Virus record (IMG/VR): IMGVR_UViG_3300028048_000042 | Source of the DNA: a virus | Lineage: Duplodnaviria; Caudoviricetes | Reading direction: 5' to 3' (one strand) | DNA length: 64,000 nt | Position numbers and translations under genes: made by a program | Part shown: positions 2,224 through 44,460 of the stretch, one piece after another | Layout: each line of letters opens with the position of its first letter | Numbering within the stretch: the first letter of the stretch is position 1 | Notes under the pieces: generated by a model | The model's database searches: none | The model's input: only the letters and a program-made list of their open reading frames with translations | What the model was told of the DNA's origin: nothing

Positions 2224-2484
2224 ATGAAGTTTAAATCACATGGAAACACTTTTTTTTCAAATTGGTATGCATTTGAAATCACTGACAATAATCAAAAAAT
2301 AGATAATGTAGTTTTCAAAATGTCTCCCTATACAAATGAAAGGCAAATTTGCATTTATGATGAATACGCTAAATGTAAATATCTTTTTCTGATTAAAGAC
2401 GATACAATTCTTGCGTATGAATCCAATGATATATTAAATATTAAAGAAATGAAACAATTGTTGTCACGATTTTTTGGAGTATGA
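2224..2484 (+). CDS. RxxG-phi C-terminal motif family protein
   Basis: ends LLSRFFGV*. Confidence 0.8.
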   Translation: MKFKSHGNTFFSNWYAFEITDNNQKIDNVVFKMSPYTNERQICIYDEYAKCKYLFLIKDDTILAYESNDILNIKEMKQLLSRFFGV

Positions 2485-2487
2485 AAG

Positions 2488-2733
2488 ATGAATATACATT
2501 TTGTTTTACAAAAAACTGTTATGGAAGGTGTTGATTACCAAGAACCAAAAAAAAGAGTAGGTTGTATAGGATATATTTTTACAACAAGTAATATATCTAA
2601 AAAATTTGTTTTTCGTAGCTATACTGATGGCACACAAACGATGCATAAATTAGGTGGAATTTTATACAAACCAATAGACTTTATGAAAGTTGAATACCTA
2701 AGAAAATTAATGCAAAGATTTGATGGAGTTTGA
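2488..2733 (+). CDS. RxxG-phi C-terminal motif family protein
   Basis: ends LMQRFDGV*. Confidence 0.8.
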   Translation: MNIHFVLQKTVMEGVDYQEPKKRVGCIGYIFTTSNISKKFVFRSYTDGTQTMHKLGGILYKPIDFMKVEYLRKLMQRFDGV

Positions 2734-2751
2734 TTATAAAGGAGTAATGAA

Positions 2752-2916
2752 ATGAATAATAAAAACGTGAGTGGAAAAAGAGACACAAAATTGTGCAAAA
2801 GCATAAAAGAACATAACAAAACTTGTGACAGTTGTCCTGCTTTAGTAAGAAAATCAGAAGGAAAATGTTGTGTTTTTGACTATACTCTAATTAAAGCTGA
2901 TAAAGATTTGAGATAA
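2752..2916 (+). CDS. small Cys-rich hypothetical protein (54 aa, not in the ORF track)
   Basis: AAGGAG RBS; MNNKNVSG...CDSC...CC...DLR*. Confidence 0.55.
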   Translation: MNNKNVSGKRDTKLCKSIKEHNKTCDSCPALVRKSEGKCCVFDYTLIKADKDLR

Positions 2917-2949
2917 AATTATGTTGGCATATAATCCAAATGAAAAAGG

Positions 2950-3195
2950 ATGGCAAAAGTGAAATTAGAAGAAGCGATTAAGCGTTGCGAAGAATTAGCT
3001 GACAGTAAATATAATACATATAGTAGAGAATGTAGACAATTGGCAGAATGGCTAAAAAAGTTAAAACAATATATTTTAGAATGTAAAAAAGGAAGTGGAA
3101 TAAAATGTTGGATTTTGTTTGCGGTATTTTTGTTGGCATTTTCTTTGGACTTATTCTGCTTAATGATGAAATTAACATTGGATGAAAGAAAATGA
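2950..3195 (+). CDS. hypothetical protein
   Basis: in operon; LEEAIKRCEE...CRQLAEWLKKLK. Confidence 0.55.
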   Translation: MAKVKLEEAIKRCEELADSKYNTYSRECRQLAEWLKKLKQYILECKKGSGIKCWILFAVFLLAFSLDLFCLMMKLTLDERK

Positions 3196-3201
3196 GGATT
3201 A

Positions 3202-3501
3202 ATGAATATGAAAGATGAATTGATTGTCAAGAATGCAATTACTAATGCAATAGCCAAAACACACAAAGAACTTTCAAATTTAAGATTGGGAATTTTGGCA
3301 TTTATTGATGAATATAACAATTTTGGATTTTCAATTTATGGCGGTTTGAATAGTGGATTAGGCAAAAAAGAAATTTACAACAGAGAAATTCTTGCTTTTG
3401 AAGAATATATGAAGTCGTGCAATATCAATATTGTTTTGGTTTTGCGTGAAGATGATTTAGATGATGATACATTTTACCTTGAATACAAAGTAGTAGAATG
3501 A
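3202..3501 (+). CDS. hypothetical protein
   Basis: GAGG RBS, in operon. Confidence 0.65.
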   Translation: MNMKDELIVKNAITNAIAKTHKELSNLRLGILAFIDEYNNFGFSIYGGLNSGLGKKEIYNREILAFEEYMKSCNINIVLVLREDDLDDDTFYLEYKVVE

Positions 3502-3529
3502 GAAAATAGTAAAGGAAGGATGAATAAAT

Positions 3530-4315
3530 ATGTTTAAAGATTCTTTAGGCGATAGAATGAAAGGTTATTATGAAAATGCTTATCGCAATTATTTAACAAG
3601 ACGAACTCCTGTAATTATCCGTATTGACGGTAAAGCTTTTCACACTTTTACAAGAGGTCTTGAAAAACCATATGATATGATTTTTAAGAAAGCTATGTGG
3701 AAAACAACGGTTTATTTGTGTGAAAATATTCAAAATGCAAGAATTGGCTATGTGCAATCTGATGAAATTTCCATTCTTTTGATTGACTATAATAAATTTA
3801 CAACCTCTGCATGGTTTGATAATAATATTCAGAAAATGTGTTCTGTGTCAGCAAGTATGGCAACGATGGCTTTCAATAAATATTTTATGGAAGAACTCTA
3901 TGAATATTTAGAAACAAATGATATGTCTGATGAAAAGTTTGCTATTTATGAAAGCAAACTTAATGGTGCTATGTTTGATTCGCGAGTTTTCAATCTCCCT
4001 GAGTCGGAGGTTTGTAATTATTTCATTTGGCGACAAAATGATGCTACACGTAATTCTATTGAACTTTTGGGTAGAGAATACTTTTCTGCAAAAGAATTGC
4101 ATAAGGTTAATTGCAATCAAATTCAAGACAAACTCATGACAGAGAAAAATGTTAATTGGAATGATTGTCCAACATTTTTTAAGCGTGGTGCGTGTGCATA
4201 TAAGAAAGTCAATGAAGAAGAAAATTGTTCGGCAGTAAGTATTGATTTGGAAATTCCAATTTTTACACAAGATAGAAATTTCATTGAGAAACATTTGGAA
4301 ATTGTAGACAAATAA
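3530..4315 (+). CDS. thg1: tRNA(His) guanylyltransferase Thg1-like protein (3'-5' polymerase)
   Basis: RIDGKAFHTFT, YVQSDEIS, FDSR, YFIWRQNDA.RNS motifs. Confidence 0.92.
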   Translation: MFKDSLGDRMKGYYENAYRNYLTRRTPVIIRIDGKAFHTFTRGLEKPYDMIFKKAMWKTTVYLCENIQNARIGYVQSDEISILLIDYNKFTTSAWFDNNIQKMCSVSASMATMAFNKYFMEELYEYLETNDMSDEKFAIYESKLNGAMFDSRVFNLPESEVCNYFIWRQNDATRNSIELLGREYFSAKELHKVNCNQIQDKLMTEKNVNWNDCPTFFKRGACAYKKVNEEENCSAVSIDLEIPIFTQDRNFIEKHLEIVDK

Positions 4316-6091: not shown

Positions 6092-6976
6092 ATGGACAAT
6101 TCACACTATTGGAGAAGAAAAGAAGAAATGAAAAAGAAAGCATTAGAACATACAAAAGAAATGTCTAATACTTATTCAGAAGAAATTCTAAACTCCATTA
6201 ATAACACTACACTCTATTTTATGAATGGAAACAATGTAAAGAAAAGTCATCATGAAGGAGATAGTATTATCACCGAAACTGTATATCCTTTGGTTAAGAA
6301 TGCTATGGTAAGACCAATTCCTAAACATCATGTATTACAGTCTACTTCTACACAAGCAATCTTTGATGAATTAAGTAGTAGTGGCAAAGTTTGTGTATTG
6401 AACTTTGCTAGTTATAAGAATGCAGGAGGTGAATTCCTTAAAGGCAGTACAGCACAAGAAGAATGTTTATGCCATGATTCATTCCTGTATAATGTATTAA
6501 AAGAATATCCTAAGTATTATGAATGGAATAAACAACATTTAAATAAGGGAATGTATCTCCATAGAGCATTATATACAAAAGATGTAATTTTTGAATGTGA
6601 AGGTAAAAAAGCGTTGGTAGATGTAATTACTTGTGCTAGTCCAAACTATTCCGTAGCATTAAAATATGGCGGTTTTACGGCAAAAGAAAATCTAACCTGC
6701 CTAAAGCAGAGGGCGAAATTTATTCATGCCATAATTGAGGACAATCCACAGATTGATGTAGTCATTTTAGGAGCTTGGGGATGTGGCGTATTCAAACAAC
6801 AGCCCAAACAAATGGCAGAGATTTGGAAAAGATTGCCTTTTGACTCTAATCTGACCATTATCCACGCTATCCCTGACAGACGAACTTTTAACGATTTTGA
6901 AAATGTGCTTCATAAGCATAAGCAAATGGGAAATAGTTTTTACTCAAATTCGTTTTACTTAAATCAAATTGAGTAA
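6092..6976 (+). CDS. TIGR02452/DUF2263 macrodomain protein (bacterial PARG-like ADP-ribosyl hydrolase)
   Basis: VLNFASYKNAGGEFLKGSTAQEECLC and ILGAWGCGVF motifs. Confidence 0.88.
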   Translation: MDNSHYWRRKEEMKKKALEHTKEMSNTYSEEILNSINNTTLYFMNGNNVKKSHHEGDSIITETVYPLVKNAMVRPIPKHHVLQSTSTQAIFDELSSSGKVCVLNFASYKNAGGEFLKGSTAQEECLCHDSFLYNVLKEYPKYYEWNKQHLNKGMYLHRALYTKDVIFECEGKKALVDVITCASPNYSVALKYGGFTAKENLTCLKQRAKFIHAIIEDNPQIDVVILGAWGCGVFKQQPKQMAEIWKRLPFDSNLTIIHAIPDRRTFNDFENVLHKHKQMGNSFYSNSFYLNQIE

Positions 6977-6997
6977 AAATATATAGGTGGAATCCAC

Positions 6998-7075
6998 AAA
7001 TTCATAGTAATGAATTCTATAAATTCATAGTAATGAATTTTATAAATTTGTAATAATGAATTCTATAAATTTGTG
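6998..7075. repeat. 23-bp tandem repeat, about 3.5 copies, each unit internally palindromic
   Basis: aaattcatagtaatgaattctat at 6998 and 7021, degenerate at 7044 and 7067. Confidence 0.85.
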
Positions 7076-7099
7076 TTAATAGATTCTTTGATTTTATGG

Positions 7100-7500: not shown

Positions 7501-7530
7501 TTGACAAAATGTGAATGATAATGATATAAT
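7501..7530 (+). promoter_or_regulatory. sigma-A-like early promoter heading the array
   Basis: TTGACA-18-TATAAT with TG. Confidence 0.7.
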
Positions 7531-7554: not shown

Positions 7555-7836
7555 ATGATAAAATTCTGCAATGAAATGCAATATGACAATTCATTCCTTG
7601 AAGATAAGTCGTGTTTTTTCGCATTTTTTTATTCTGAAGGCGAAAGATATTTTTGCAGATTACCATCAGGCATAGATGTAAACAGCATTGACTACTTAAA
7701 ACTATACCGTGTTTGGCATCCTTCAAAATCTGTTGGACAAAATAATATAGGATGGAACTTTGAAGAATTGAAAGAAAACAAAACACCACAACAAAAAATG
7801 TATAGAAAATTGTATAGTAGGATTTTGGGATTATGA
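7555..7836 (+). CDS. RxxG-phi family protein
   Basis: ends LYSRILGL*. Confidence 0.8.
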   Translation: MIKFCNEMQYDNSFLEDKSCFFAFFYSEGERYFCRLPSGIDVNSIDYLKLYRVWHPSKSVGQNNIGWNFEELKENKTPQQKMYRKLYSRILGL

Positions 7837-8294
7837 ATGACAGTAAAGAATATCTGCAAAACAAAATGTTTGAGAAAATAACAGCAATTTCCATTATTGA
7901 GAAATTCTATTTTTTTAGGTTTGGTCATGTAGAAGCACATTGGTTATTTGGTGACAAAAAGAAACTTAACAACCTTCTTTTTAAAAAAAATATAAAAATT
8001 TCTTATTTTGAAGAGAGAGGAAATGTAGTTACCTTCCACGGCAAAGAGGAGTATTGTATCTATTATGAAGTAATTCACAAAAAAGAACATATTTTCCGAG
8101 CTGTATTTGTTTGCGGAGAAAATAAACTTTTTCTTACTGATGATAATAGAAGCGGTTATGTATTTTGCCCAAATGATAATGAACATCAAGATACTTATAA
8201 ATTTTTGGCATCAAAAGCAGAATTGATTTCTTGTTCTGTTGATGACCTAATTAAAATTTTACGTTCGGTAATGTTTCGTACAATAGGCACTTAG
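7833..8294 (+). CDS. RxxG-phi family protein
   Basis: ends VMFRTIGT*. Confidence 0.75.
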   Translation: MNDSKEYLQNKMFEKITAISIIEKFYFFRFGHVEAHWLFGDKKKLNNLLFKKNIKISYFEERGNVVTFHGKEEYCIYYEVIHKKEHIFRAVFVCGENKLFLTDDNRSGYVFCPNDNEHQDTYKFLASKAELISCSVDDLIKILRSVMFRTIGT

Positions 8295-8306
8295 GAGAGA
8301 TTTTGC

Positions 8307-8720
8307 ATGAAAACATTTGGTAGATTTGATAAAGATTATGGGGAATACGAAATTCATATAAAGTGTATATTTCGAGATGATTCTATACCTGCAACATTTG
8401 GGACTTTAACTTTGAGAGAGTTTTTTGCCCCACCATCGACTCTAAATTACATTTCTGTGGCAATCGTAGCAAAAAAATCTCTAAGCGACAAAATGAATTA
8501 CTTTGAACGCACAACACAAAAGCAAAGAAATTCAAATTTATGTTATTATACAGATAGTGAATTTGGTATTTTTAGCATAACAAATGCGTTAAAAACAATA
8601 CTAATGGCAGGGTACAATTTAAGTTATTATCCGCAAATACGCAAAAATTTAAAACAAGGATTAGAACTCGTTTTAAAAGATTTAAAAGAAAATTATGTAC
8701 CTAGAAAGATTGGAGTATAA
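8307..8720 (+). CDS. RxxG-phi family protein
   Basis: ends YVPRKIGV*. Confidence 0.75.
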   Translation: MKTFGRFDKDYGEYEIHIKCIFRDDSIPATFGTLTLREFFAPPSTLNYISVAIVAKKSLSDKMNYFERTTQKQRNSNLCYYTDSEFGIFSITNALKTILMAGYNLSYYPQIRKNLKQGLELVLKDLKENYVPRKIGV

Positions 8721-8723
8721 AAA

Positions 8724-9512
8724 ATGATTTTTTTTATTTCTGACACACATTTTTATCATGATAATATAATTAAATATTGTAATCGTCCTTTTCGCAATGT
8801 AGAAGAAATGAACGAAACCATAATTGAAAATTGGAATTCGGTAGTAAAACCTACTGATGTAGTGTATCATTTGGGCGATTTTACAACTGCTGATTATATC
8901 CCTAATATTAAATTTAAAGACAGATACATTGTAACAGCTAGGAATCTGTTGTCAAGGTTAAATGGAAAAAAAATTTTAATTCGTGGTAATCATGATTTAA
9001 GCAAAACAGTTTGTTTGGAATGTGGATGGGATAGGGTTGAAACTGAAGTCAATGAGAGAGGTATGGTATTAAGTCACAAACCTAAGGAATATATAAACCT
9101 TGTAAATGTTCATGGTCATATTCATAATCAAAAACCATTTTGTTATTTAGATGAAAATGGTAAGGTTCGGTTTAATGTTAGCGTTGATGTAACATCTTTC
9201 AAACCTGTATCAATTGAACAAATTGAGAATGCGTATATTAACAAAATTTCTGAAGTATACCAAAACGAAAAAATCGTTAGTAGTGAAATTCATTATGGTA
9301 AATTTTTCCAATTTATCCATGATAAAAAATTTGATATTCTTGTAGTATTGAAATTTACCAATAATTACAGTTTAGAAATTTACAAAACACGAAGTCAATA
9401 TGTAATAAAATGTAATGGCATAGAAATGCATATAATAAGAGTAGATTTAAATGATTTAAAAAAGTTCCCTCAGTTTTTGAAGGATTTAATGATAAGATAT
9501 GGAGTGATTTAA
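8724..9512 (+). CDS. calcineurin-like metallophosphoesterase with a C-terminal extension
   Basis: SDTHF, HLGDF, RGNHD, HGHIH motifs; about 90 extra aa ending LMIRYGVI*. Confidence 0.88.
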   Translation: MIFFISDTHFYHDNIIKYCNRPFRNVEEMNETIIENWNSVVKPTDVVYHLGDFTTADYIPNIKFKDRYIVTARNLLSRLNGKKILIRGNHDLSKTVCLECGWDRVETEVNERGMVLSHKPKEYINLVNVHGHIHNQKPFCYLDENGKVRFNVSVDVTSFKPVSIEQIENAYINKISEVYQNEKIVSSEIHYGKFFQFIHDKKFDILVVLKFTNNYSLEIYKTRSQYVIKCNGIEMHIIRVDLNDLKKFPQFLKDLMIRYGVI

Positions 9513-9513
9513 T

Positions 9514-9876
9514 ATGGCATATACATATCCATTTATGTGCACAACTATTTCTGCAAAAGCAGAATATTTTGCAAGGTCTGTTGAAACACAATCAATATTT
9601 AATGAATTTAAAGTATTGAAAAAAGAAAAAAAATATAAGGTTCAAAATTTTTGTGGATATAGGATTATAGAAGTTGACCCATATTTTTCACTCTTTATAA
9701 AAAAAGACAAAACAATTTGCGGATTTTTATCCAATTATGCAGATAATCCGTTTATGTATAACATTAAATTTACTCACAAAACAAATTTTATATATGACAA
9801 TTTTACAAAAGCTAAATATAAACCTAAAGAAAAAGAGTTTATTAAACATTTGTGTGCAAGATTGAAAGGTATATGA
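9514..9876 (+). CDS. RxxG-phi family protein
   Basis: ends LCARLKGI*. Confidence 0.8.
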   Translation: MAYTYPFMCTTISAKAEYFARSVETQSIFNEFKVLKKEKKYKVQNFCGYRIIEVDPYFSLFIKKDKTICGFLSNYADNPFMYNIKFTHKTNFIYDNFTKAKYKPKEKEFIKHLCARLKGI

Positions 9877-9877
9877 A

Positions 9878-10249
9878 ATGGTTAATATAACAGAAGGACT
9901 CAATCGAATAAATAGTTGTAAATATAATTTTTTCTTTAATGGCTTGAAAATTTCCCAACAAAAAAATGGTATTGTTATTGTTCGAAATTTCAATCCATTA
10001 AGTATTAGAAATAATTGTTCTTGGCATGACCAATCGCCATACATCTATACAAGTTTTTTTCTTGAAAAAGATGGAATTTTTAGTTATAACGACCATATAA
10101 GAGACAGGCAAGTAAAAATAAACTTATTTGGATATAAACAAAAATGGTGGAATAAATATTGGTTTTCATTCGAGTTGAATTTTACATTTTTCGAAAGCAC
10201 AATGGTTTATTTTGCAAAAAAATTGTATAGCCGTTTATATGGAGTGTAA
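9878..10249 (+). CDS. RxxG-phi family protein
   Basis: ends LYSRLYGV*. Confidence 0.8.
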   Translation: MVNITEGLNRINSCKYNFFFNGLKISQQKNGIVIVRNFNPLSIRNNCSWHDQSPYIYTSFFLEKDGIFSYNDHIRDRQVKINLFGYKQKWWNKYWFSFELNFTFFESTMVYFAKKLYSRLYGV

Positions 10250-10252
10250 AAT

Positions 10253-10519
10253 ATGCGTATTTCTACAACAAAAATTTTTAACAACCTTTGTCGAGTTTTT
10301 GCTTATGGAGAATCAGACAATTACATATTTACTTTTGATTTAGACGATAGTGATTTTTGCGAAATAATTATTAACAATTATAAAATTACAATTGCAAGAG
10401 AAGATGGAATGAACAGTTATATTGCTTGGAATGAAATTAAGAATTTAACAAATTTCTATCCCATATCTCATATTAAGAAAGAACCTCGAATTATGTTTTC
10501 TAGGTGCTTTGGAGTCTGA
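10253..10519 (+). CDS. RxxG-phi family protein
   Basis: ends MFSRCFGV*. Confidence 0.8.
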   Translation: MRISTTKIFNNLCRVFAYGESDNYIFTFDLDDSDFCEIIINNYKITIAREDGMNSYIAWNEIKNLTNFYPISHIKKEPRIMFSRCFGV

Positions 10520-10538
10520 TTTTTCAGGCTCTTTTTTG

Positions 10539-10567
10539 TTGACAAAAGTTGCAAAATCGTATAAAAT
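10539..10567 (+). promoter_or_regulatory. sigma-A-like promoter, preceded by terminator hairpin 10512-10537
   Basis: TTGACA-17-TAAAAT. Confidence 0.65.
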
Positions 10568-10594
10568 AAAAGTAATGAATAGGAGGTAATTAAA

Positions 10595-10864
10595 ATGATA
10601 GAAAGTGTATTTATAGATATGCCACATATATACTTGAAAAAAGACGCTTTTTATTTTGGTAAGACAAACATTAGAAAGCTTGGCGTGCGCATCTCGCTTG
10701 AAGATTATGCTAATTTCTATGTATCAAGGTGGAGAATGTTTCGTGGTGAACAGTATTCTCGTAATAATGGTTTGGTTTTCGAAACATTGTATAATCAAAT
10801 TGGTGAATATTACCAATACACTAAGGAAGCAAAAATTTTAATGGGAAGGTTGGCAGGTATATGA
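10595..10864 (+). CDS. RxxG-phi family protein
   Basis: ends LMGRLAGI*. Confidence 0.8.
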   Translation: MIESVFIDMPHIYLKKDAFYFGKTNIRKLGVRISLEDYANFYVSRWRMFRGEQYSRNNGLVFETLYNQIGEYYQYTKEAKILMGRLAGI

Positions 10865-10867
10865 TAA

Positions 10868-11048
10868 TTGACATCCTCCTCCACCTTTTTAAGTGGGGGA
10901 TTCCTACTTCTCAGACCGTAGCGTATGTGATTTCATCACATGAGGTATGGCGTAGCCATACCTTTTTACGTCTTACACAATCTCCATAGGCTTTCCGTAC
11001 CTTCGGTACGCTGATTCCGCAAGCCCTGCGGTACAGTTTTTGTATGGT
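10868..11048 (-). ncRNA. TnpB omegaRNA scaffold / IS200-IS605 right end (copy 1)
   Basis: conserved with 19367-19540 including compensatory stem changes; subterminal hairpin, ends ...ggatgTCAA. Confidence 0.8.
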
Positions 11049-12161
11049 TTAGGCTACTTTCAGTAGCCTTTTTCCTTCTTTTAAGATATTTATGCTTGCA
11101 TTTATGTCTCGGTCATGCGTAGCATGACATTTCGGACATTCCCATTCTCTGATTGACAAATCTTTTACTTTTGGATTTTTATATCCACAATTTGAACAAG
11201 TTTGAGAACTAGCAAAGAAGGTATCTACCTTCACTACTTGGCAATTGCATTGCCATTTTGCTTTGTATTCAAGCATAGTTATGAATTTATACCATGAACA
11301 ATCTTGAATGGATTTAGCTAATTTATGATTTTTTACCATATTTTTAATTTTTAAACTCTCAATAGCTATGACTTGGTTTTCATCTACTAGCTTTCTTGAA
11401 AGTTTATGAAAAAAATCATTTTTAAAATTGGTAATTTTTTCATATTGAATAGCTAATTTAATTCTTCTTTTTTCATGGTTTTTAGATTTAGGCATTGTTC
11501 TTGAAAATTGTTTTTGTAATCTTTTTAATTTCTTTTCAAGTTTTTCAATGTGCTCTGTGTCCATGTGGTACTTCGTACCATTTGATGTAATAGCAAAATC
11601 TTTAATACCCAAATCAATACCAACTTCGTTGGCTTGTGATGTACCAAAAACATCTTGTTCCTCTACAAGAAGTGAAACAAAATACTTATTTGATGGTGTC
11701 TTTGACACCGTAGCATTTTTGATTATTCCATTGAAAAATCTGCTTTGTTTTACTTTTACAAGAGTTTTTAGTTTAGGCAAGCGTAGCTTGCCATTCTCAA
11801 CGGCTACTGTTCCATTCTGATTTAGTGTTCTGTAAGAATTTTTCCTATGCTTATTGTGAAATCTTGGATATTTAGCTTTTTTCTTAAAGAAACGTTGAAA
11901 AGCTGAATCAAGGTCACGAAGTGACTGTTGCAATGCGATAGAATCGCTCTTTTTCAGCCATTCGTATTCTTGATATTTTTTCAAATCAGTGATATGTTTT
12001 GATAATTCTTTCATAGAAATAGTTTTTTGTTCATTTTTCCAAAGGGCTTTTTTAAGACCCAAACAATGATTATAAACAAATCTACAATTCCCAATGTTTT
12101 GGTCAAAAAATTGTTTTTGATTTTCATTAGGATATAATCTAAATTTGTATGCTTTTAGCAT
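11049..12161 (-). CDS. tnpB: IS200/IS605-family RNA-guided endonuclease TnpB (copy 1)
   Basis: [12 protein letters not shown] start; RuvC GIDLG / IESL / DRDINA intact; CxxC..CxxC zinc ribbon. Confidence 0.95.
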
Positions 12162-12186
12162 TTTATTTCACCTCCTTTAAAGGATA

Positions 12187-12245
12187 TTGACAAATTAAAA
12201 TATTTGTGTTAATATTAGTATATACCTAAAAGAGAAAAATGTCAA
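12187..12245. promoter_or_regulatory. interdigitated divergent promoters
   Basis: plus: TTGACA(12187)-17-TAATAT; minus: TTGACA(12245-12240)-17-TATACT facing tnpB. Confidence 0.65.
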
Positions 12246-12265
12246 AAAGTGGAGGGGGTCTTTAT

Positions 12266-12526
12266 ATGATAAATAAAAAATTTAAATTTTACCATAGTTT
12301 TCTTAACAAACGCCAAAATTCATTTACAGTTACAGTATACACCCATATTGGTGAGCCAAATATAAAAGAGGAAGTATATACTATAACTTGCTTCGACCAT
12401 GAAGCTATAGCAATTTCAAAGAATTACAAAAACACAATGTATTACAACACAAAACATTTCATTCTTAATAAAAAACTTCCACAAAGAGAAACATCACTGC
12501 TAATTAGTAGAATGTTTGGAGTTTAA
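12266..12526 (+). CDS. RxxG-phi family protein
   Basis: ends LISRMFGV*; start after GGAGG. Confidence 0.8.
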   Translation: MINKKFKFYHSFLNKRQNSFTVTVYTHIGEPNIKEEVYTITCFDHEAIAISKNYKNTMYYNTKHFILNKKLPQRETSLLISRMFGV

Positions 12527-12527
12527 T

Positions 12528-12772
12528 ATGGCTACTAGAAAATACATTTTTAGTATAACACGTACAGTTTTTCGCAACGAAGTTAGAACGATTGATGAAT
12601 TCTTTCACATTCATATTAACACATATAGACAGACAGCAACAATGACAGATTATGATTATGATATATTCCAAAGATATGACTTAAAAAGAGGGAAACGAAT
12701 GGTTGTAGAAGGTGTAGATAGAGAAATCCCCCTTTTTGCAAAAAACTAATATCAAGAGCGAACGGAGTATAA
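12528..12772 (+). pseudogene. frameshifted RxxG-phi family gene
   Basis: frame 0 stops at 12749 (FAKN*); the -1 frame continues KKLISRANGV* to 12772 across an A6 run. Confidence 0.75.
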
Positions 12773-12824
12773 AACAAATAAGATATATATAACACTTGAC
12801 ACAAGTAGAACGGTAGGGGGAAAC

Positions 12825-13094
12825 ATGAAACAACTTAATGTATATAGAAACGATGAATTAGTTAATTTTTTTGCTGTGGGTTTTCGTCAGAACTATTGGA
12901 TTACAATATATTTCCCACTAACGATACAACATTATCTTTTTAGAATTTCTGTAACGCAAACGCATTGTTCTCGTAAATCAACTGTTAAATTTTTCTTTTC
13001 TTATCATACTCAACAAGATTACGATAAAATTTTCGGTTCAGATATAGAAAAAAAACAAATCATGCTCAATATAAGCAGAATGGTTGGTGTATAA
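12825..13094 (+). CDS. RxxG-phi family protein
   Basis: ends NISRMVGV*. Confidence 0.8.
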   Translation: MKQLNVYRNDELVNFFAVGFRQNYWITIYFPLTIQHYLFRISVTQTHCSRKSTVKFFFSYHTQQDYDKIFGSDIEKKQIMLNISRMVGV

Positions 13095-13100
13095 TAAGCA

Positions 13101-13679: not shown

Positions 13680-13686
13680 AAAAATG

Positions 13687-13715
13687 TTGACAAATTATGC
13701 TTTTTCTGATACAAT
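13687..13715 (+). promoter_or_regulatory. sigma-A-like promoter
   Basis: TTGACA-17-TACAAT with TG. Confidence 0.7.
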
Positions 13716-13729
13716 AAAGGAGAAATAAG

Positions 13730-14026: not shown

Positions 14027-14031
14027 AAAAA

Positions 14032-14803: not shown

Positions 14804-14804
14804 A

Positions 14805-15053: not shown

Positions 15054-15055
15054 AT

Positions 15056-15817: not shown

Positions 15818-15831
15818 GGAGATATTTTGAA

Positions 15832-32919: not shown

Positions 32920-34779
32920 ATGAATAAAGGTTTAATGTTGAGAAAAATTAAGGATGCAGACAAGGCTTATTACATGGATGATAATCCCATTATGTCAGAT
33001 GAAGAATATGATACTTTAAGAAATACATACATTTCTTTGTATGGCAGTAAAGATTTAGATTATGTAAGTGGAGATATAAAAAAGGGATTAAAACCATTCA
33101 AACATACTTGTAATATCAATTCTTTAAAAAAAATTCGTTATTACGAAAAAGAAAAACTGATTGAAGAAATTCGCAGGTTGAGTCCAATTGTAGTTGAGCC
33201 AAAATATGATGGACTGACCGTTGTTGCTTATCCTAGCGGTGAGTTTGTCACTCGTGGTGGCGGTTTGGTCGGAGAAGTGCTGAACAATTTCCCTTCTCGC
33301 TATAACAAAAATACCTCAGAGTTCCCCATTCGTGGAGAAGCATATTTGACTGTTAAAGATTTTGAAATCATCAATGCTGATTTACGCAACAAAGGTATGG
33401 ATTTATATAAAAACCCTCGTAATGCCTGTGCAGGCATCTTGCGAAGAATTGATTCTAGCCCTTATAAAGAATATGTGAAATACATTTGTTATGATGTAAT
33501 TGGTAGTGATGCAGGGGAATTAGACAAAATTAAATATATCAAAGAACATACCAACTTTGATGTAGCTGAAACGTTCATTCCTCCTGCATGTGATTTAGCT
33601 GATTATTTTAGCAAACTCTACGACAAAAAAAGTAAAGAAGATATTCCTATTGATGGTTTAGTAATCAAAACAACATTTGCAGGCAGTTTAAAAAGATTTG
33701 GCTCAACTGACCATCATCCAAGAAATGCCTTTGCGTATAAATCCCAGGATGAAATTAAAGCTACGAATATCATTTCTGTGGAATGGCAAGTTGGTAGAGA
33801 AAGTGTAACTCCAATTGCTATTTTTGAACCTGTAGAATTAGAAGGTACGACAGTATCAAAAGCTTCCCTTAGTAATGCAGGTTTGTTTATGGATTTAGAT
33901 TTACATATTGGCGATACTGTGTCGGTATTCAAGGCGAATCAAATTATTCCTCAAATCAAAAGCAAATTGGCAAACAATGGTGGTAATAAAATCGAATTGC
34001 CGAAAACATGTCCTGTATGCGGTTGTGCATTAGAAAGCCGAAAAAATAACGATACATATACAATTGTTTGCCCAAATGAAATGTGTAAAGGAAAATTAGT
34101 TAATAAAATCGAATACATGTTTTCAAAGAAATGTCTTAATGCAAAAGGTATGTCTTCAAAAACCATTGAAAAAATGTTACCTTACATTAATCATCCAACT
34201 GATATTTTCAATATTACTTTGGAACAAATTTTAACTTTGGAAGGATTTAAGGAAAAATCTGCCAATAATTTATATAATGCTATCCAAAATTCACGCAAAA
34301 ACGTTTCATTGGATGTATTTATTGCTAGTATTGGATTTTTAGGTATTGGATTTGACGTTGGCAAATTACTTGCAAATAAATATAATACTTATGATAAAGT
34401 TTTGATGGGATTACAAAACGATTCTCTAACAGACATTAAAGGAATTGGTGAAACCACAGCCTTAAAATTAAAATCTAATAACTTCATTCATGAAATGAAA
34501 AAGCTTCATGAATATATTGAAATTAAGGAAGAAACATTTACAACTAATAATAATTGTTTAACATTTGTTATTACAGGTAAATTTTCTCAACCTCGCAGCG
34601 TTTTAGAAAAAATGATTGAACAAGCAGGTCATAAAGTAGCAAGTGCAATTAGTAAAAACACCAATTATCTTGTTATTAGTGATTTATCGTCAACATCATC
34701 TAAAACGAAAAAAGCAAAACAGTTGGGAATTCCAATGATTGATGATAAGCAATTAGAAAATATTTTACAGGAAGGATAA
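32920..34779 (+). CDS. ligA: NAD-dependent DNA ligase
   Basis: EPKYDG adenylation motif, TRG, RGE, NPRN, OB fold, Cys4 zinc finger, HhH repeats, BRCT. Confidence 0.95.
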   Translation: MNKGLMLRKIKDADKAYYMDDNPIMSDEEYDTLRNTYISLYGSKDLDYVSGDIKKGLKPFKHTCNINSLKKIRYYEKEKLIEEIRRLSPIVVEPKYDGLTVVAYPSGEFVTRGGGLVGEVLNNFPSRYNKNTSEFPIRGEAYLTVKDFEIINADLRNKGMDLYKNPRNACAGILRRIDSSPYKEYVKYICYDVIGSDAGELDKIKYIKEHTNFDVAETFIPPACDLADYFSKLYDKKSKEDIPIDGLVIKTTFAGSLKRFGSTDHHPRNAFAYKSQDEIKATNIISVEWQVGRESVTPIAIFEPVELEGTTVSKASLSNAGLFMDLDLHIGDTVSVFKANQIIPQIKSKLANNGGNKIELPKTCPVCGCALESRKNNDTYTIVCPNEMCKGKLVNKIEYMFSKKCLNAKGMSSKTIEKMLPYINHPTDIFNITLEQILTLEGFKEKSANNLYNAIQNSRKNVSLDVFIASIGFLGIGFDVGKLLANKYNTYDKVLMGLQNDSLTDIKGIGETTALKLKSNNFIHEMKKLHEYIEIKEETFTTNNNCLTFVITGKFSQPRSVLEKMIEQAGHKVASAISKNTNYLVISDLSSTSSKTKKAKQLGIPMIDDKQLENILQEG

Positions 34780-35173: not shown

Positions 35174-35463
35174 GCAAAAAAAATCAAATTGATTTTTATC
35201 CTAAAAACAAAAAAAATCCATATTTTCACACAAATTTTCTAAATTGACCAACAATTCTACATAATAGTATTTCATCTTTCCTTATATACATTTTTCCTTA
35301 TATATAGGAAGTAATTTGTTCAAACTGTACTAAATTGTTGTATATAGCTGAATTTTAAATCATCTGACAATTCACAGAAGTGGTTCTTTAGTCCTAAGTG
35401 TTGACTTTTAGGAGAATGCACTATAATATAGTAAATGTTTGAACAAAAAGGAGAAATGTAAGA

Positions 35464-35856
35464 ATGTGCAAAATCACAACCAAGACAATTTACAACAAAT
35501 TAACTAAGGACGAGAAGAAATGGTTATGCCCTGACGGTAAGTGGTCTGAAATTGCAGATGACAAGGTTATTTACAAGGAGGTTAGTAAAAAAGGTTTTAT
35601 TGAAGCGTACAACACAGGCATTATAGAGGATGCTGTATACTTCGACATTGCAGTAGTAAAAGAGCATAGGCAGGAAGGTTTAGCTTCTAAAATGTTTAAT
35701 AATATGGTAGAATGTCTAAAAGAAAAGAATTTCACTACCATCTTTACATATGTTCACAAGGATAATGACCCCTCCTATTGGATGCTTGACAAGTTCGGTT
35801 TTGAAATTATCGGCAAATGTGATGATATGTGGAAATTGAAATTACAGGTGGCATGA
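35464..35856 (+). CDS. GNAT family N-acetyltransferase
   Basis: IAVVKEHRQEGLAS acetyl-CoA motif; N..S..ML.KFGF. Confidence 0.85.
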   Translation: MCKITTKTIYNKLTKDEKKWLCPDGKWSEIADDKVIYKEVSKKGFIEAYNTGIIEDAVYFDIAVVKEHRQEGLASKMFNNMVECLKEKNFTTIFTYVHKDNDPSYWMLDKFGFEIIGKCDDMWKLKLQVA

Positions 35857-35857: not shown

Positions 35858-36310
35858 ATGCAAGAAACCGACAAAAATATGGTGTGCAATGTTAAAATTT
35901 GTGAGAATTTAGGTATTGTCACATATAACAAAAATATAACAATTCGTACAGGTAAAAAATCAAACAGATACGAACTGCTTTTGCAATTTGTTTCATACGG
36001 TACAGATGCTTATCTAAATTTACCATATTATTTTGATTTATACTTTTTAATCAAAGACGATAAAAAAAAATTGCTTGATATATCTCTTTTGGATAGTGAT
36101 GGTGTAATTATTAATTTAAAAAACAAAAAACTTACTCGTAGCGATATAGAAGGTATCATTTGCTGTTTCAAATTTGACGGACGCCTTTCAGAAAAACTAA
36201 TGAATACAAAAATTAATTACGATATAATTATACAACATTTAACACAAATGTTATCAAGAATAAAAACAAAACAATTGCGCTTAATTAAAAGTAGAGTTAT
36301 GGGAGTATAA
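35858..36310 (+). CDS. RxxG-phi family protein
   Basis: ends IKSRVMGV*. Confidence 0.75.
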   Translation: MQETDKNMVCNVKICENLGIVTYNKNITIRTGKKSNRYELLLQFVSYGTDAYLNLPYYFDLYFLIKDDKKKLLDISLLDSDGVIINLKNKKLTRSDIEGIICCFKFDGRLSEKLMNTKINYDIIIQHLTQMLSRIKTKQLRLIKSRVMGV

Positions 36311-36357: not shown

Positions 36358-36687
36358 ATGAATGATTCGCAATCATTAATAGGCTTTATAAAATGGGCAT
36401 CAGATGTTCAAGTTTATGGTTGTGTTAGCATGGAAAAAGATTATAACACAGGTGTGGCAAAAATTTGTGTGATTGCAAAACACATATCAAACGAAGACCT
36501 CGACTACACTTACGTTTGCAATTTCATTAGATGTAGGGAAGATATTGTCGAACGAGTTTTAGGAGATATAATACATAAATTCGGAGCAACAGAAACTCCG
36601 AATCTTCAAAATTTAATCAAAAGTTGTTTGTCAAAACAAGGTCGTAGAAATATGGGTATATATGCATCTAGGATTCTTGGAACATAA
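36358..36687 (+). CDS. RxxG-phi family protein
   Basis: ends YASRILGT*. Confidence 0.75.
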   Translation: MNDSQSLIGFIKWASDVQVYGCVSMEKDYNTGVAKICVIAKHISNEDLDYTYVCNFIRCREDIVERVLGDIIHKFGATETPNLQNLIKSCLSKQGRRNMGIYASRILGT

Positions 36688-36730
36688 AAACAAGGTAACG
36701 TTTTGTTACCTTGTTTTTTTAAAAAAAATG

Positions 36731-37857: not shown

Positions 37858-39009
37858 ATGTCTACAAATATTTTGCATGAAATTTTTAATGATATTAAAA
37901 CCAAAAGTTTTACTTCATTTACAGATAAGGTATATATGGATGAAGAAAATGTATATATGTTAGCAAAACAAAACGAATATATTGATAAAGATGATTATTT
38001 TGGTAGATATGATTCTCACCATAAATATGATTTTGACATTGTGAATTTTTTTCATCTAAATGTAATAAATAGAAAAACTTTACATGAAGGAATTGCAAAT
38101 AGCACATTTATTTGCCTTGGAGGTATTGGCGAAAAACCTTTAATTTTTCGTCGCCGTTTCAAAGAACATTTCAATAGTATTGTATCTCTTGATGATAGTG
38201 GACGTTGGATTCACACAGATAAATGGAGTGAATTATGCAAAAAAAATAAAAATTTTATATTTCACAAAGACAACATGTACGTTAAAGAATTTCCTATACA
38301 CAAATCCTGTTCATTATTCTTATATGTAAGAGCTAATGATGGAGATTTTAACGAAGACCCAATTCCATACATTAACAATTTTAACATTGAAGCTTATATC
38401 AAAGCGTTTAATTACGAAATGAGCCTATGGAATAATGGTGAAGTTAATGAATTGAAAGATGTTTGCCCTGAGTTTGTAAAAACATATAACGCATTTTTCA
38501 AACCTATTGAAAAACTTACGAATGAAGAGAAAAAGCTAATTAAACCATTGATGCAAAAAGTGGAATTTGACAAACGAATAAACCCACTTTATGACAAAAA
38601 TGATATTGTTGTAAAATGCAAAAAGTTCGCCACAATTGAAAGTATTGATTATGATTTTTGCCCTTCAACAGAATTAATTTCCACAAATGGTGATTATGAA
38701 AATGATGAAGATTTGTCAGCATTGATTGGTGGGTACGTGAATTCATTTAGAATTTATAACAATACAAAAGATTTAGTAGGTTCTAAATTTAAATCACCTA
38801 TCAAAGTAAAAGAACTTGAAGTATTCTTTTCAACCGATGAACCTAACCGTACCGAAATTTTCAAATCTACAAAATATGGCATGATTAATATTGAAAATTA
38901 TGACCGTGTATATGCCAACAAATATAAAAGCATGGTAAAACAGTATCTTGAAACTATTGCTCGTATCTCTAATATAAGTAAAAAAGAAGTTATTGGAGGA
39001 TTAAAATGA
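37858..39009 (+). CDS. hypothetical protein, triplicated family member 2
   Basis: C-terminal STKYGMI...TIARISNI. Confidence 0.75.
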   Translation: MSTNILHEIFNDIKTKSFTSFTDKVYMDEENVYMLAKQNEYIDKDDYFGRYDSHHKYDFDIVNFFHLNVINRKTLHEGIANSTFICLGGIGEKPLIFRRRFKEHFNSIVSLDDSGRWIHTDKWSELCKKNKNFIFHKDNMYVKEFPIHKSCSLFLYVRANDGDFNEDPIPYINNFNIEAYIKAFNYEMSLWNNGEVNELKDVCPEFVKTYNAFFKPIEKLTNEEKKLIKPLMQKVEFDKRINPLYDKNDIVVKCKKFATIESIDYDFCPSTELISTNGDYENDEDLSALIGGYVNSFRIYNNTKDLVGSKFKSPIKVKELEVFFSTDEPNRTEIFKSTKYGMINIENYDRVYANKYKSMVKQYLETIARISNISKKEVIGGLK

Positions 39010-40202
39010 AATCACTGAATAAGTTGTTTAAAGAATTGTGTGATTTAAGTTTTACAGGACAAGAAGAAAATTATTTTTCAATCGAACATAACAAAACGCT
39101 TTCTCGTCAAGTAGCATTTACTTACGATTACATGGGTATGGCAAAAATGCAATCCGTTGAAAAACAATATTCTCAATGGAATAACACCCAATATGATGTT
39201 TTTTTTAACAACAATGATTCATCTTTGGGAAAAATTCAACTGTCAGAAATTAAGCATAGTGATATGCAAACATTTAATATTGTTGATTACAACATTCCTT
39301 CTTTGATGGTAAGAAATCAACATGTATTATATTGTTTCAATAATCTTTTTGGCAAAAAGATTTGGTTTACCACAGACGAAAATCAAAAATACGAATTATA
39401 TTCCAACGCAAAAGAAAGCTATGGGATAAAGATTGACCTTAAAGGAAATAAGAACAAATTAAAAAACGGCTTAAATACTGATTTCGAATGGTTTACCAAT
39501 GTCGTTTATTTCCAAGATAGAGAAAACTACGGTATTGGGATTGATGTGCAAGCCATTGAACCTAATGAATACTATTCGGAAAGAAATTGCGAAGAGCCTA
39601 AATTTTATCATTTTAAGATTAATGGGTTCTTAATGATTAATGGCGAATGTATTTATCTTGATGAAAAACAATTACGTCAAGTAATGAAACAGTTATACCA
39701 TTCAAATGCAAGAAAAATTGTTGAGATTTATGCAAGTCTTCACAAAAGAATCAATAAAATGACAAAAGAAGATAAAAACAATCTTAAATATTTTCCTTGC
39801 ATCAAAAAACATTATCTTGCCCCCATAGTTTCCAATAATCATGGTGTAATTCGGCTGAAATATCTCTTACCTCCCAAAAATTGTGAAAAAAACATCATTG
39901 GAACTATTAAAAATGATATTGACGCTAGAGTTTATTTAGAAACTCTTTACACGCGAAACAAATCTGTAAACAAATGCGAAGAAGATACAGATTTGCAAAA
40001 AATCGTTATTGATGATTACACATTTTTTCTCAACACAAAAAAACATTTATTTGCAGGGTTTAAGAAAACTCAATATGGGGATTTGGATTTGGGTAAATAC
40101 GACCAAATTTCAATAAGCAATGCAAAAGAAATGTTAAAGAAAAAAATGTCAATTGTTGCAAGATTGCAAAATTTATCACTAGAAGACGTATATCAAGAAT
40201 AA
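39006..40202 (+). CDS. hypothetical protein, triplicated family member 3
   Basis: C-terminal KTQYGDL...IVARLQNL. Confidence 0.75.
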   Translation: MKSLNKLFKELCDLSFTGQEENYFSIEHNKTLSRQVAFTYDYMGMAKMQSVEKQYSQWNNTQYDVFFNNNDSSLGKIQLSEIKHSDMQTFNIVDYNIPSLMVRNQHVLYCFNNLFGKKIWFTTDENQKYELYSNAKESYGIKIDLKGNKNKLKNGLNTDFEWFTNVVYFQDRENYGIGIDVQAIEPNEYYSERNCEEPKFYHFKINGFLMINGECIYLDEKQLRQVMKQLYHSNARKIVEIYASLHKRINKMTKEDKNNLKYFPCIKKHYLAPIVSNNHGVIRLKYLLPPKNCEKNIIGTIKNDIDARVYLETLYTRNKSVNKCEEDTDLQKIVIDDYTFFLNTKKHLFAGFKKTQYGDLDLGKYDQISISNAKEMLKKKMSIVARLQNLSLEDVYQE

Positions 40203-42539: not shown

Positions 42540-42995
42540 ATGAATATTTTATTGCGTAAAATTAAAAAATTGGCTTTTGATTCTCGTTTAAAAAATCAAT
42601 ATACGCAATATGCTTTGGATTATGTGAAAAAAGAATTTGGTAAACATTATGAAGAAGAAATGAATGATGTATATCATGAGTATATTGAAAATTGTGAACG
42701 ACTTGAAATGCGTTATGATGAAGATGGTAAAGATTTTGATGACCGTGAACTTGAAAAAGAAGCAAAACAAAAGACTTTAAATGAAGTTAATGCATTGGCA
42801 TATGCTTTTGTAAGTAAAACACTTAATGATGATTTTGTAAAGCAGTTCAACGAACATTTTTCAAATAAATCCAACATTCCTGAAGATGTTAATAGCTACT
42901 TCAAAAGGGAAGAATTGCAGCAGTATATTGATTTTGACCAAATCACCACAGCTATTGAAAAGAATTATAAAGATTATATCGAGGATTTGTTATGA
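42540..42995 (+). CDS. acidic protein with basic N-terminal leader
   Basis: MNILLRKIKKLA then a D/E-rich body. Confidence 0.7.
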   Translation: MNILLRKIKKLAFDSRLKNQYTQYALDYVKKEFGKHYEEEMNDVYHEYIENCERLEMRYDEDGKDFDDRELEKEAKQKTLNEVNALAYAFVSKTLNDDFVKQFNEHFSNKSNIPEDVNSYFKREELQQYIDFDQITTAIEKNYKDYIEDLL

Positions 42996-43363
42996 AAAGA
43001 TTAATTCGTGCAGACATGTCAAAGGAAGATATGGTAAAAACAATTACGGATAACAATCCTGCTTATAATGAAGGAGCTACTTGGATTCGAACTGAGGATG
43101 ATATTGCAGACGTTCAAGAATTATGGACGGATGAAGATTTCGGTATGTACCCTGATTTTACCAAAGAAATGGCAGAAAAAGCCTTAAAAGAAGGTAAAGT
43201 TGTGGTATATAGTAGTAAACCATTTGAACTTGGAAGTTTCGTAACGCCTAGCAAAATGTATGCTGAAAGCTATTCAGGCAATGGTAAGATTTATTCCCAA
43301 GAAATGAATTTGAATGATATTGCTTGGATTGACGAAGGTGAAGGTCAAATTGTAAAATTATGA
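42992..43363 (+). CDS. acidic protein with basic N-terminal leader
   Basis: MKRLIRA; FVTPSKMYAESY...DIAWID. Confidence 0.7.
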   Translation: MKRLIRADMSKEDMVKTITDNNPAYNEGATWIRTEDDIADVQELWTDEDFGMYPDFTKEMAEKALKEGKVVVYSSKPFELGSFVTPSKMYAESYSGNGKIYSQEMNLNDIAWIDEGEGQIVKL

Positions 43364-43382
43364 AAAGGAGCGAAAACCTTAA

Positions 43383-43790
43383 ATGAAACGATTAGCTAAC
43401 ATTGATTGGAATAACGAAGACGTAGAATCCATTAATTATATTAAAGAAAATGCTGACGATTTTAAGTCTTTCGTAAAAAAAGAAATGATTGATTATTACA
43501 AGGATTTTCTTGATGATAATGAAGATTGGTTCGTTGATGAAGAAGATGATGAAGGTTTTAAAGTAAAATCTGATGAACAATTATCCAAGGATTTGGAAAG
43601 TCGAATGGAATCATTCACAGGTGGGTACTTATTCTGCATCCTTGATTATTTGGAAGCGCACAATAAAAAATTCCATCAGACAAGCTACGGCTGTGAATAC
43701 ATGAATAAATTCAAAGACGAATGGTTTATGTCGGTCATGAAGGAAACGGTAATTCCTGAACTCATTAATTACGTACATAAAAGATTCTAA
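43383..43790 (+). CDS. acidic protein with basic N-terminal leader
   Basis: MKRLA then a D/E-rich body. Confidence 0.7.
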   Translation: MKRLANIDWNNEDVESINYIKENADDFKSFVKKEMIDYYKDFLDDNEDWFVDEEDDEGFKVKSDEQLSKDLESRMESFTGGYLFCILDYLEAHNKKFHQTSYGCEYMNKFKDEWFMSVMKETVIPELINYVHKRF

Positions 43791-43832
43791 AAAAGAGACG
43801 TTTTAACGACCTCTCTTTTTTATAAAAAATTG

Positions 43833-43861
43833 TTGACAAAATCCCTCTGCTATGATATAAT
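43833..43861 (+). promoter_or_regulatory. sigma-A-like promoter
   Basis: TTGACA-17-TATAAT with TG. Confidence 0.75.
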
Positions 43862-43891
43862 CATTTTATAAATCGCAAGGGGGGATTTTTG

Positions 43892-44164
43892 ATGAATATA
43901 ATAAATGATGAAAACATTGAAATAGATTTGTTTAGGGAAGTTCAATACTTCAACAGTATTTATAGCACAAATTCATTTTTTTGCTATTGCGATGATTATT
44001 TGTATAGAGTCCAATTCCGTTATGAACTCGATAAAAATTCTTTCAGTGTTTTTTTTGGTCAAGGCGATAAAGATATTACATTACCATTCCCATTAAAATC
44101 AAAAACCATAAAACAGATAAATAAAAACCTTGTCAAAATGCTGACAAGATTGGTCGGAGTATAA
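43892..44164 (+). CDS. RxxG-phi family protein
   Basis: ends MLTRLVGV*. Confidence 0.8.
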   Translation: MNIINDENIEIDLFREVQYFNSIYSTNSFFCYCDDYLYRVQFRYELDKNSFSVFFGQGDKDITLPFPLKSKTIKQINKNLVKMLTRLVGV

Positions 44165-44166
44165 AA

Positions 44167-44460
44167 ATGGAAAAATTAACATTCAAAACTTTTTCTAATC
44201 GTTTTAAGAGTACACTACTAGGCAATAGGAAATTAAAAAAAAGTAACAAGTTTCATTCAAGATATAGAATTGATTGTTATTGGATTGATTCACAGAAAAA
44301 AATATTTACAGAATTCATGTATCAATCATATCCTAATCATTTCATTATCAGTTTTTGCCCTTATGATTCAGCTCTACTAACAGAAGGGCGAGAAGAAAAT
44401 ATCCAATTAAAAGAGTACAAAGAACAACGAATTATATTTTCAAGAATGTTTGGAGTATAA
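44167..44460 (+). CDS. RxxG-phi family protein
   Basis: ends IFSRMFGV*. Confidence 0.8.
   Translation: MEKLTFKTFSNRFKSTLLGNRKLKKSNKFHSRYRIDCYWIDSQKKIFTEFMYQSYPNHFIISFCPYDSALLTEGREENIQLKEYKEQRIIFSRMFGV

Follow-up and report, generated by a model that had tools for sequence, protein, structure and literature searches.

Forty-three small phage proteins with dissimilar bodies share one R-x-x-G-V C-terminal tail: a candidate address tag

A single short peptide at the end of a chain can dock unrelated proteins on one common partner. The T4 capsid-targeting sequence and the cargo-loading peptides of the encapsulins work in this manner, and further such peptides are the clamp-binding tails of T4 gp43, gp55 and gp33 and the tail by which SspB docks on ClpX. 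The ankyrin proteins of the poxviruses use a C-terminal PRANC/F-box-like module to dock their variable heads on one host hub. Here we describe a candidate system of this general kind in a stretch of 64,000 nucleotides (the window; GC content ~29%) from the ~318-kb genome of an uncultured phage (IMG/VR record IMGVR_UViG_3300028048_000042). The window has 43 genes for small proteins whose bodies, or heads, are mutually dissimilar, but whose C-termini all carry the same tail, with an Arg five residues from the end and a Gly at the penultimate position. An earlier note on this DNA had pointed out these genes; the analysis reported here follows it up.

A regular-expression scan for the ending R..G[VILAMT]-stop over all open reading frames (ORFs) of at least 50 amino acids (aa) in the whole window found it in 44 of the 113 plus-strand ORFs and in none of the 112 on the minus strand, against a background rate of 2 in 537 ORFs (at least 100 aa) from unrelated bacterial loci. 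The scan, together with a codon reading of each end, recovered all 43 tagged ORFs of the earlier note at the same positions, and the comparison with a background that the note had proposed clearly favours a real signal. The encoded proteins have 76 to 153 aa; 37 of the genes are packed into 7555-24505 and the rest form the pairs 2224/2488, 35858/36358 and 43889/44167. The forty-fourth hit, 28515-28883, fits the regular expression only; it does not match the wider profile of the tag and was rejected as a member.

Counted position by position, the conservation extends from -13 to -1 and amounts to about 24 bits, with the consensus K-[E/K]-h-[R/K]-x-[L/I]-h-[S/L]-R-h-h-G-V (h, hydrophobic); the shared R-x-x-G end thus stands as first noted, but the tag is wider than was then thought. 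The Arg at -5 is present in 43/43 members and in every orthologue seen. Lys never takes its place, although Lys is three times commoner than Arg in the tag proteins and the other basic positions of the tail mix K, R, S and N. The Gly at -2 is likewise found in 43/43, and exactly one residue follows it in all 43. A recount of this last residue gave the same figures as the earlier hand count (V29, I8, T2, A2, L1, M1); it is beta-branched in 39/43 and never Phe, Tyr or Trp. Members reach at most ~25 bits in a tail-only profile. The motif is confined to chain ends: among 12,351 13-mers from 44 other window proteins the best internal match scored 7.2, compared with a member median of 20.2.

Could such a motif be simply the by-product of a nucleotide constraint, with GGAGT providing the Shine-Dalgarno site for coupled translation of the gene that follows? 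The codon GGA is indeed enriched at Gly -2 (58% versus 31% in other genes, p = 4e-4), and GGA-GTN puts a GGAG 6-9 nt before many of the downstream starts. Nevertheless, 18 of the 43 members use another Gly codon (GGA25, GGC6, GGT6, GGG6), and the GGA share is alike in coupled genes (16/28) and in those classed computationally as operon-terminal (9/15), so the need for a downstream ribosome-binding site does not explain the excess. The Arg at -5 has no nucleotide signature whatever: all six codons occur (AGA21, AGG9, CGT6, CGA5, CGC1, CGG1), and where Arg and Val are fixed, their codons are used as in the genome background. Among 21 other genes that have a start close downstream, only the rejected 28515-28883 fits the regular expression, and the tag is retained on operon-terminal genes. 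The stop codons are also mixed (TAA27, TGA13, TAG3), and the tally as a whole agrees with the earlier statement that all six Arg, all four Gly and all three stop codons are used. Because all four Gly codons are used and the six Arg codons occur in background proportions, these data support selection on the residues of the tag rather than on its DNA, as the note had also argued; the nucleotide-constraint explanation, to which we give almost no credence, is effectively refuted by the codon data.

The heads are a different matter. An all-against-all phmmer comparison of the bodies, without their tails, linked only a single pair (20426 and 23660), and Smith-Waterman scores of real bodies did not differ from those against reversed ones (p = 0.11), with three pairs standing out. 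With hhalign, profiles built from random halves of the family gave the bodies a probability of less than 0.1%, and full-length profiles aligned over only 13-28 columns, namely the tail. No PHROGs family was found for any of the 43 members, and a Pfam search (E <= 0.01) yielded only two isolated sub-threshold hits; the tail profile had no match among PDB sequences at E <= 10. That the bodies cannot be aligned, which had been judged by eye, is therefore borne out by three methods. Even so, a comparison of four orthologue pairs between the window and a related strain (L001) gave dN/dS of 0.18 at dS 0.74, indicating that the heads are real proteins, each under its own purifying selection between strains.

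It could be argued that the 43 proteins are paralogues that have diverged extremely from one small fold, made of a beta-sheet and a final helix, and that the tail is a structural or oligomerising helix packed on the sheet. The few body pairs that are still similar imply that duplication does occur in the family. Moreover, an AF2 model of the 97-aa member 44167, made with an alignment of 38 paralogues and orthologues, has four strands followed by a C-terminal helix (residues 81-94) that is its most confident part (pLDDT 65 overall, 76-77 in the tail). Models from single sequences were much poorer (pLDDT 40 for AF2 on member 13101; 0.47-0.49 for the ESM Atlas models of two members, which gave no feature match). 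However, the paralogue-based model is itself of low confidence, and no fold match above noise was obtained for it with Foldseek against PDB and BFVD or with a wide VIA-align search (Z at most 5). The negligible profile-profile probability of the bodies, the range of lengths (76-153 aa) and the lack of any conserved head residue that the invariant Arg might contact also speak against a common fold, as does the fixed chain end: structural last helices normally tolerate variation in length at the end, and none is seen among the 43. We regard a single hyperdiverged fold as an improbable explanation.

As to the tail itself, its mean hydrophobic moment is 0.47 (12-mer) or 0.56 (best 11-mer), compared with a body mean of 0.25, and 72% of the tails lie above the bodies' 90th percentile. 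The mean hydrophobicity is about -0.1 and the net charge of the last 14 residues is +1 to +5 in 43/43 members. In the AF2 model of 44167 the tail helix extends to -3. Taken together, these predictions describe a cationic amphipathic helix capped by Gly and one aliphatic residue.

Such a description recalls the C-terminal membrane anchor of MinD, which in Escherichia coli has the sequence KGFLKRLFGG (PMC5471200); of the Bacillus subtilis anchor, one copy is reportedly enough to bind the membrane (PMC8155659). The anchor and the phage tag are alike in being short cationic amphipathic helices at the C-terminus, in ending hydrophobic-hydrophobic-Gly-x and in having equal moment and hydrophobicity, and both would be transplantable modules. 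On this basis the tag might be an in-plane membrane-targeting helix that pins the 43 early proteins to the inner membrane face of the host with no need of a protein reader. The moment, hydrophobicity and charge of the tails fall within the range of E. coli MinD and four Bacillota MinD tails; the E. coli anchor can be placed in register with the tag at -10, -8, -7, -5 (Arg), -4, -3 and -2 (Gly), and it ranks in the top 0.08% of random 10-mers when scored with the tag matrix. Nevertheless, it reaches only 3.9 bits in that matrix, compared with 10.7-26.7 for the members. The four Bacillota tails vary freely, end differently and score as background, which implies that for membrane binding alone a tail needs neither an invariant residue nor a fixed end. 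Thus, while MinD-like anchoring is physically sound, it leaves unexplained why the Arg is never Lys, why the Gly is invariant, why the chain stops strictly one residue later and why Leu, Phe and Trp are nearly absent from the last position; the seven members with Asp, Glu or Lys at -3, and the one that has Pro at -6, fit it poorly as well. The context also differs, since MinD carries its anchor on one conserved ATPase and the phage has its tag on 43 unrelated heads, among which a Pfam search (E <= 0.01) revealed no deviant Walker ATPase of the MinD/ParA type. Membrane binding by the phage tail, a prediction from its physics, is rather unlikely to be the whole explanation, but it is the main rival of the reading that we favour below.

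A precedent for the reading of such invariant residues is known from human cells. The human ubiquitin ligase CRL2-APPBP2 recognizes C-degrons with the pattern Arg(-5)-x-x-Gly(-2)-x by means of a pocket that senses the Arg and the Gly separately and fixes the two-residue spacing between them (PMC10614623). The degron is bound as an extended peptide, its x-x positions are free and 0-3 residues are tolerated after the Gly (PMC10614623). The determinant is the same in the phage tag: Arg at -5 and Gly at -2, two spacers, usually one residue after the Gly, and nearness to a free C-terminus; a spacing of this type is present in 43/43 members. In contrast to the degron, the x-x positions of the tag are mostly hydrophobic and predicted to be helical, and the Gly always has a single residue after it. 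The reader of the degron, moreover, is a eukaryotic tetratricopeptide-repeat (TPR) receptor of a cullin ligase, and a Pfam scan of 49 window proteins gave no TPR family. To our knowledge, bacteria have no cullin ligases, so that a reader of the phage tag could only be an analogous one. APPBP2 is thus an analogy of mechanism and not a relationship, but it illustrates that an R-x-x-G determinant can be an end signal read by a receptor.

The reading that we favour, at somewhat less than an even chance, is that the tail is a portable C-terminal address tag, read by one constant partner with a pocket that senses the Arg at -5, the Gly at -2 and the free end of the chain. Each of the 43 genes would encode a small early protein made of a variable head and a constant 13-residue tail, the helix of which would stop at the invariant Gly and be followed by one beta-branched aliphatic residue and a free carboxylate, with the invariant Arg set exactly two residues before the Gly. 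A single partner with a suitably shaped pocket would read these three features, the hydrophobic face of the helix would add affinity, and soon after infection all of the heads would thereby be gathered at one common place or machine. This partner might be a site on a protease, unfoldase or adaptor of the host or of the phage, the tag then being a degron or an adaptor tail, or it might be a scaffold, possibly at the membrane. The existence of a reader, and its mode of reading, we infer from the pattern of conservation. Generic electrostatics would accept Lys at -5, and the exclusive use of Arg there consequently speaks for specific reading; the beta-branched last residue and the fixed end suggest a pocket that discriminates size near the free end; and, given that nothing is conserved in the heads, the invariant residues must contact something constant outside them.

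Several points weigh against this reading. Among the 49 scanned window proteins there is no PDZ, TPR, Clp, Lon or clamp domain that might serve as the reader. The tail is predicted to be helical as far as -3, and most known end-reading pockets bind extended peptides. The tail physics equal those of the MinD anchors, so that the partner could be lipid, and the Arg may have an intramolecular role such as a bridge to the protein's own carboxylate. Finally, only close strains are known, which are ill suited to reveal co-variation of tag and reader between lineages.

The R-x-x-G end also invites comparison with ubiquitin, the mature form of which ends R72...G75-G76; several ubiquitin-like precursors shed the residues that follow their Gly. 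The tag, R-x-x-G-x-COOH, is in register with the mature ubiquitin end, and removal of its last residue might leave a terminal Gly available for conjugation in the manner of ubiquitin, as the earlier note had ventured, or for some other modification of the C-terminus. That suggestion fares badly. The scanned set of 49 window proteins has no ThiF/E1-like, JAB or peptidase domain; the tail is predicted to be helical rather than flexible; and 43 different modifier bodies would be without precedent. The low-confidence fold model, four strands and then a helix that contains the tail, was also considered as a possible ubiquitin-like fold, with no ThiF or JAB protein to accompany it in the scanned set. 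We consider an exposed Gly highly improbable.

With the better-known terminal targeting peptides of T4, encapsulins, the clamp and SspB, the address tag would share the plug-in principle, but the sequences are different and those peptides have far fewer clients; the T4 capsid-targeting sequence is, in addition, N-terminal and carried by late proteins. The clamp motif Q-L-x-L-[F/L] is absent, with Gln at -6 in only 4/43 tails and Arg at the Leu position in 43/43, and so is the end of an ssrA-like ClpX degron of C-motif 1, L-A-A or a similar pair of small non-polar residues, the last residue being Ala in 2/43 and the -2 position always Gly. No link to a clamp, an encapsulin or ClpX was found in the window. 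The poxvirus proteins resemble the phage set in that they, too, form a multigene family of a virus, in which the target-binding heads vary and the C-terminal docking module stays constant; they differ in being eukaryotic, in having a folded docking domain of ~30-40 residues and in having heads that are recognisably homologous repeats.

The coding capacity of the window is almost entirely on the plus strand, and so are all of the tag genes. Promoters with the consensus TTGACA-17-TATAAT stand ahead of each of their operons and of both downstream satellite pairs, and 26 of the 43 tag gene starts have strong Shine-Dalgarno motifs, compared with 8% of control ATGs. The earlier claim of early expression behind sigma-A-like promoters is thus upheld as regards the promoters; the timing, deduced from their consensus character, is plausible. 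A CodY-box consensus was not enriched in the window (22 matches versus 30 expected).

The first pair of tag genes lies well upstream of the array, at 2224-2484 (86 aa) and 2488-2733 (81 aa), both ending G-V. A fully consensus sigma-A-type promoter (7501-7530, plus strand as are all those below; 12/12, extended -10) precedes the first array operon, with tag genes 7555-7836 (93 aa, ending G-L), 7833-8294 (153 aa, G-T), 8307-8720 (137 aa, G-V, the member with Pro at -6), 9514-9876 (120 aa, G-I), 9878-10249 (123 aa, G-V) and the operon-terminal 10253-10519 (88 aa, G-V), whose last codons fall within a terminator-like stem at 10511-10532. Beyond a promoter-like site at 10539-10567 (11/12) comes 10595-10864 (89 aa, G-I), next to which lies an insertion sequence (IS). 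The following promoter-like site (12187-12215, 10/12 with TG) is succeeded by 12239-12526 (95 aa, G-V), 12825-13094 (89 aa, G-V), 13101-13388 (95 aa, G-V) and the operon-terminal 13389-13679 (96 aa, G-I), and that at 13687-13715 (11/12 with TG) by 13730-14026 (98 aa, G-V), 14032-14292 (86 aa, G-I), 14292-14573 (93 aa, G-I), 14570-14803 (77 aa, G-V), 14793-15053 (86 aa, G-V), 14987-15370 (G-I; 127 aa as the longest ORF, but probably starting at GTG 15056, for 104 aa), 15428-15817 (129 aa, G-V) and the operon-terminal 15832-16146 (104 aa, G-V).

Downstream of the site at 16163-16191 (11/12) are 16304-16564 (86 aa, G-V), a partial orthologue of which in strain L001 retains the tag, 16566-16844 (92 aa, G-M), which has the orthologues P0001 and P0002, the latter ending G-I, and the operon-terminal 16848-17189 (113 aa, G-V, with Asp at -3). 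The site at 17195-17223 (12/12 with TG) is followed by 17257-17529 (90 aa, G-V), 17533-17799 (88 aa, G-V) and 17802-18182 (126 aa with 8 Cys, G-V), next to a second IS copy, on the far side of which the series resumes with 19551-19838 (95 aa, G-A; its TTG start, adjoining the IS end, is uncertain), 19842-20111 (89 aa, G-V), 20115-20423 (102 aa, G-V), 20426-20743 (105 aa, G-V, the body of which phmmer links to that of 23660), 20736-21008 (90 aa, G-V), 21005-21262 (85 aa, G-A, probably starting at ATG 21011) and the operon-terminal 21265-21552 (95 aa, G-V). A last promoter-like site in the array (21574-21602, 12/12) serves the gene of a CCA-adding enzyme and the final five tag genes: 22973-23410 (145 aa, G-V, with Gly at -4 and Asp at -3), 23407-23637 (76 aa, G-I), 23660-23998 (112 aa, G-V), 24001-24267 (88 aa, G-V) and the operon-terminal 24257-24505 (82 aa, G-I, with Glu at -3).

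The two downstream satellite pairs have signals of their own. A promoter-like site at 35401-35427 stands ahead of a GNAT acetyltransferase gene (35464-35856) that is translationally coupled to tag gene 35858-36310 (150 aa, G-V), the orthologues of which (P0006 and P0007, 75-76% identity) retain the tail; its partner 36358-36687 (109 aa, G-T) is followed by a terminator-like hairpin (36688-36720). The other pair, 43889-44164 (91 aa, G-V) and 44167-44460 (97 aa, G-V), lies behind a promoter-like site at 43833-43861 (TTGACA, extended -10), just before which there is a terminator-like hairpin (43791-43821).

A few other genes have C-termini that come near to the tag. The plus-strand gene 8724-9512, inside the array, encodes a calcineurin-like metallophosphoesterase of 262 aa (Pfam E = 2e-8) whose ending is tag-like between -11 and -4 and includes the Arg at -5, its Gly lying at -3 instead; the score is not significant, and a degenerate member of the tag set on a known enzyme fold is a possible interpretation. 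The best-scoring C-terminus of any non-member in the window (12.8 bits) is that of an out-of-frame plus-strand ORF at ~39500-39633 within gene 39006-40202, of 52 codons (44 aa from its first Met) and ending R-L-M-G-S, which might be explained as an overprinted remnant, as an overlapping gene or by chance. The 398-aa product of that gene and the 383-aa product of 37858-39009 resemble each other as weak paralogues in their C-terminal ~175 residues (BLASTP E = 7e-7). Each contains, 10-15 residues from its end, a segment A-R-h-x-N-h-S, and a 363-aa protein has a similar one. When the C-termini of these three proteins were checked as variants of the tag, the resemblance was not significant. Small genes that lack the tag are very few in the 7.5-24.5 kb region; one is 12528-12749 (~73 aa from ATG 12528), which is coupled to tag gene 12239.

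Two copies of an IS605-family TnpB element are inserted in the array in inverted orientation, with tnpB at 11049-12161 on the minus strand and 18254-19366 on the plus strand and flanks at 10865-12238 and 18183-19550. They are ~88% identical over ~1.37 kb, their ends are abutted by tag genes 10595, 17802 and 19551, and they enclose the stretch of the array at 12.2-18.2 kb, with its 18 tag genes. Accessory enzymes also lie among the members of the tag set: a Thg1-like tRNA-His guanylyltransferase (3530-4315), a microbial-type PARG (6092-6976), the CCA-adding enzyme already mentioned, with an HD domain (21681-22910), and an NAD-dependent ligase (32920-34779). A repeat-rich non-coding stretch at 44461-45293 has many TATATATAG-like words and a 20-nt unit present three times in tandem (~45010-45070), and a second, at 6977-7080 upstream of the array, has a tandem repeat of ~25 nt; either could be an origin with iterons or a regulatory region. 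Most of the large ORFs in the window have no Pfam or PHROGs family. The source is probably a very divergent jumbo phage with a Bacillota host, because its promoters are of the sigma-A type, Shine-Dalgarno sites are present and the relatives of its TnpB, at ~49% identity, are mostly from Bacillota; it should be said that this identity is low and that such relatives are spread over Bacillota, Fusobacteriota and cyanobacteria.

How widespread is the tag? A related strain comes from JGI metagenome 3300028591, and orthologues at 70-76% identity retain the tail. A word-indexed search found only near-identical strains, a scan of JGI metagenomes returned the same 1.6-kb contig, and an exhaustive phmmer search with the 150-aa member gave two close relatives. 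The phage collection had no DNA or protein match to the window beyond a distant ligase, and IMG/VR no relative of a 1148-aa neighbour protein. A 14-base pattern scan of IMG/VR returned at least 120 loci with one chance match each and, among the matches listed, no second array. As far as can be seen in the collections searched, the tag is specific to this lineage. Full-text literature searches and a 2026 review of jumbo phages produced no published description of such tags, and the system looks undescribed, whether its reader is a protein partner or the cell membrane. We would suggest, with some hesitation, that this may be an undescribed phage address-tag system in which ~43 unrelated early effector heads share one R-x-x-G-V tag and a single reader recognises Arg, Gly and the free end in a manner resembling the C-degron pocket for R-x-x-G in eukaryotes, as a counterpart of it in bacteria or phages might; that reader may be a protease or unfoldase, acting as an adaptor hub or timing the removal of the heads.

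In large phages the early genes are for the most part small ORFs without an assigned function that offer no handle for study, and a shared tag would give them one. If the tag is indeed read, the common partner of the whole set could be found with one bait peptide, and a single class of mutation (R-to-K, G-to-A or a one-residue extension) could disable all of it. The heads would then constitute a ready-made library of host-directed binders. Should the reader prove to be a protease or an adaptor site, the phage would have its own form of targeted degradation or of timed self-removal; should it prove to be the membrane, the tag would mark out a large class of early proteins peripheral to that membrane.

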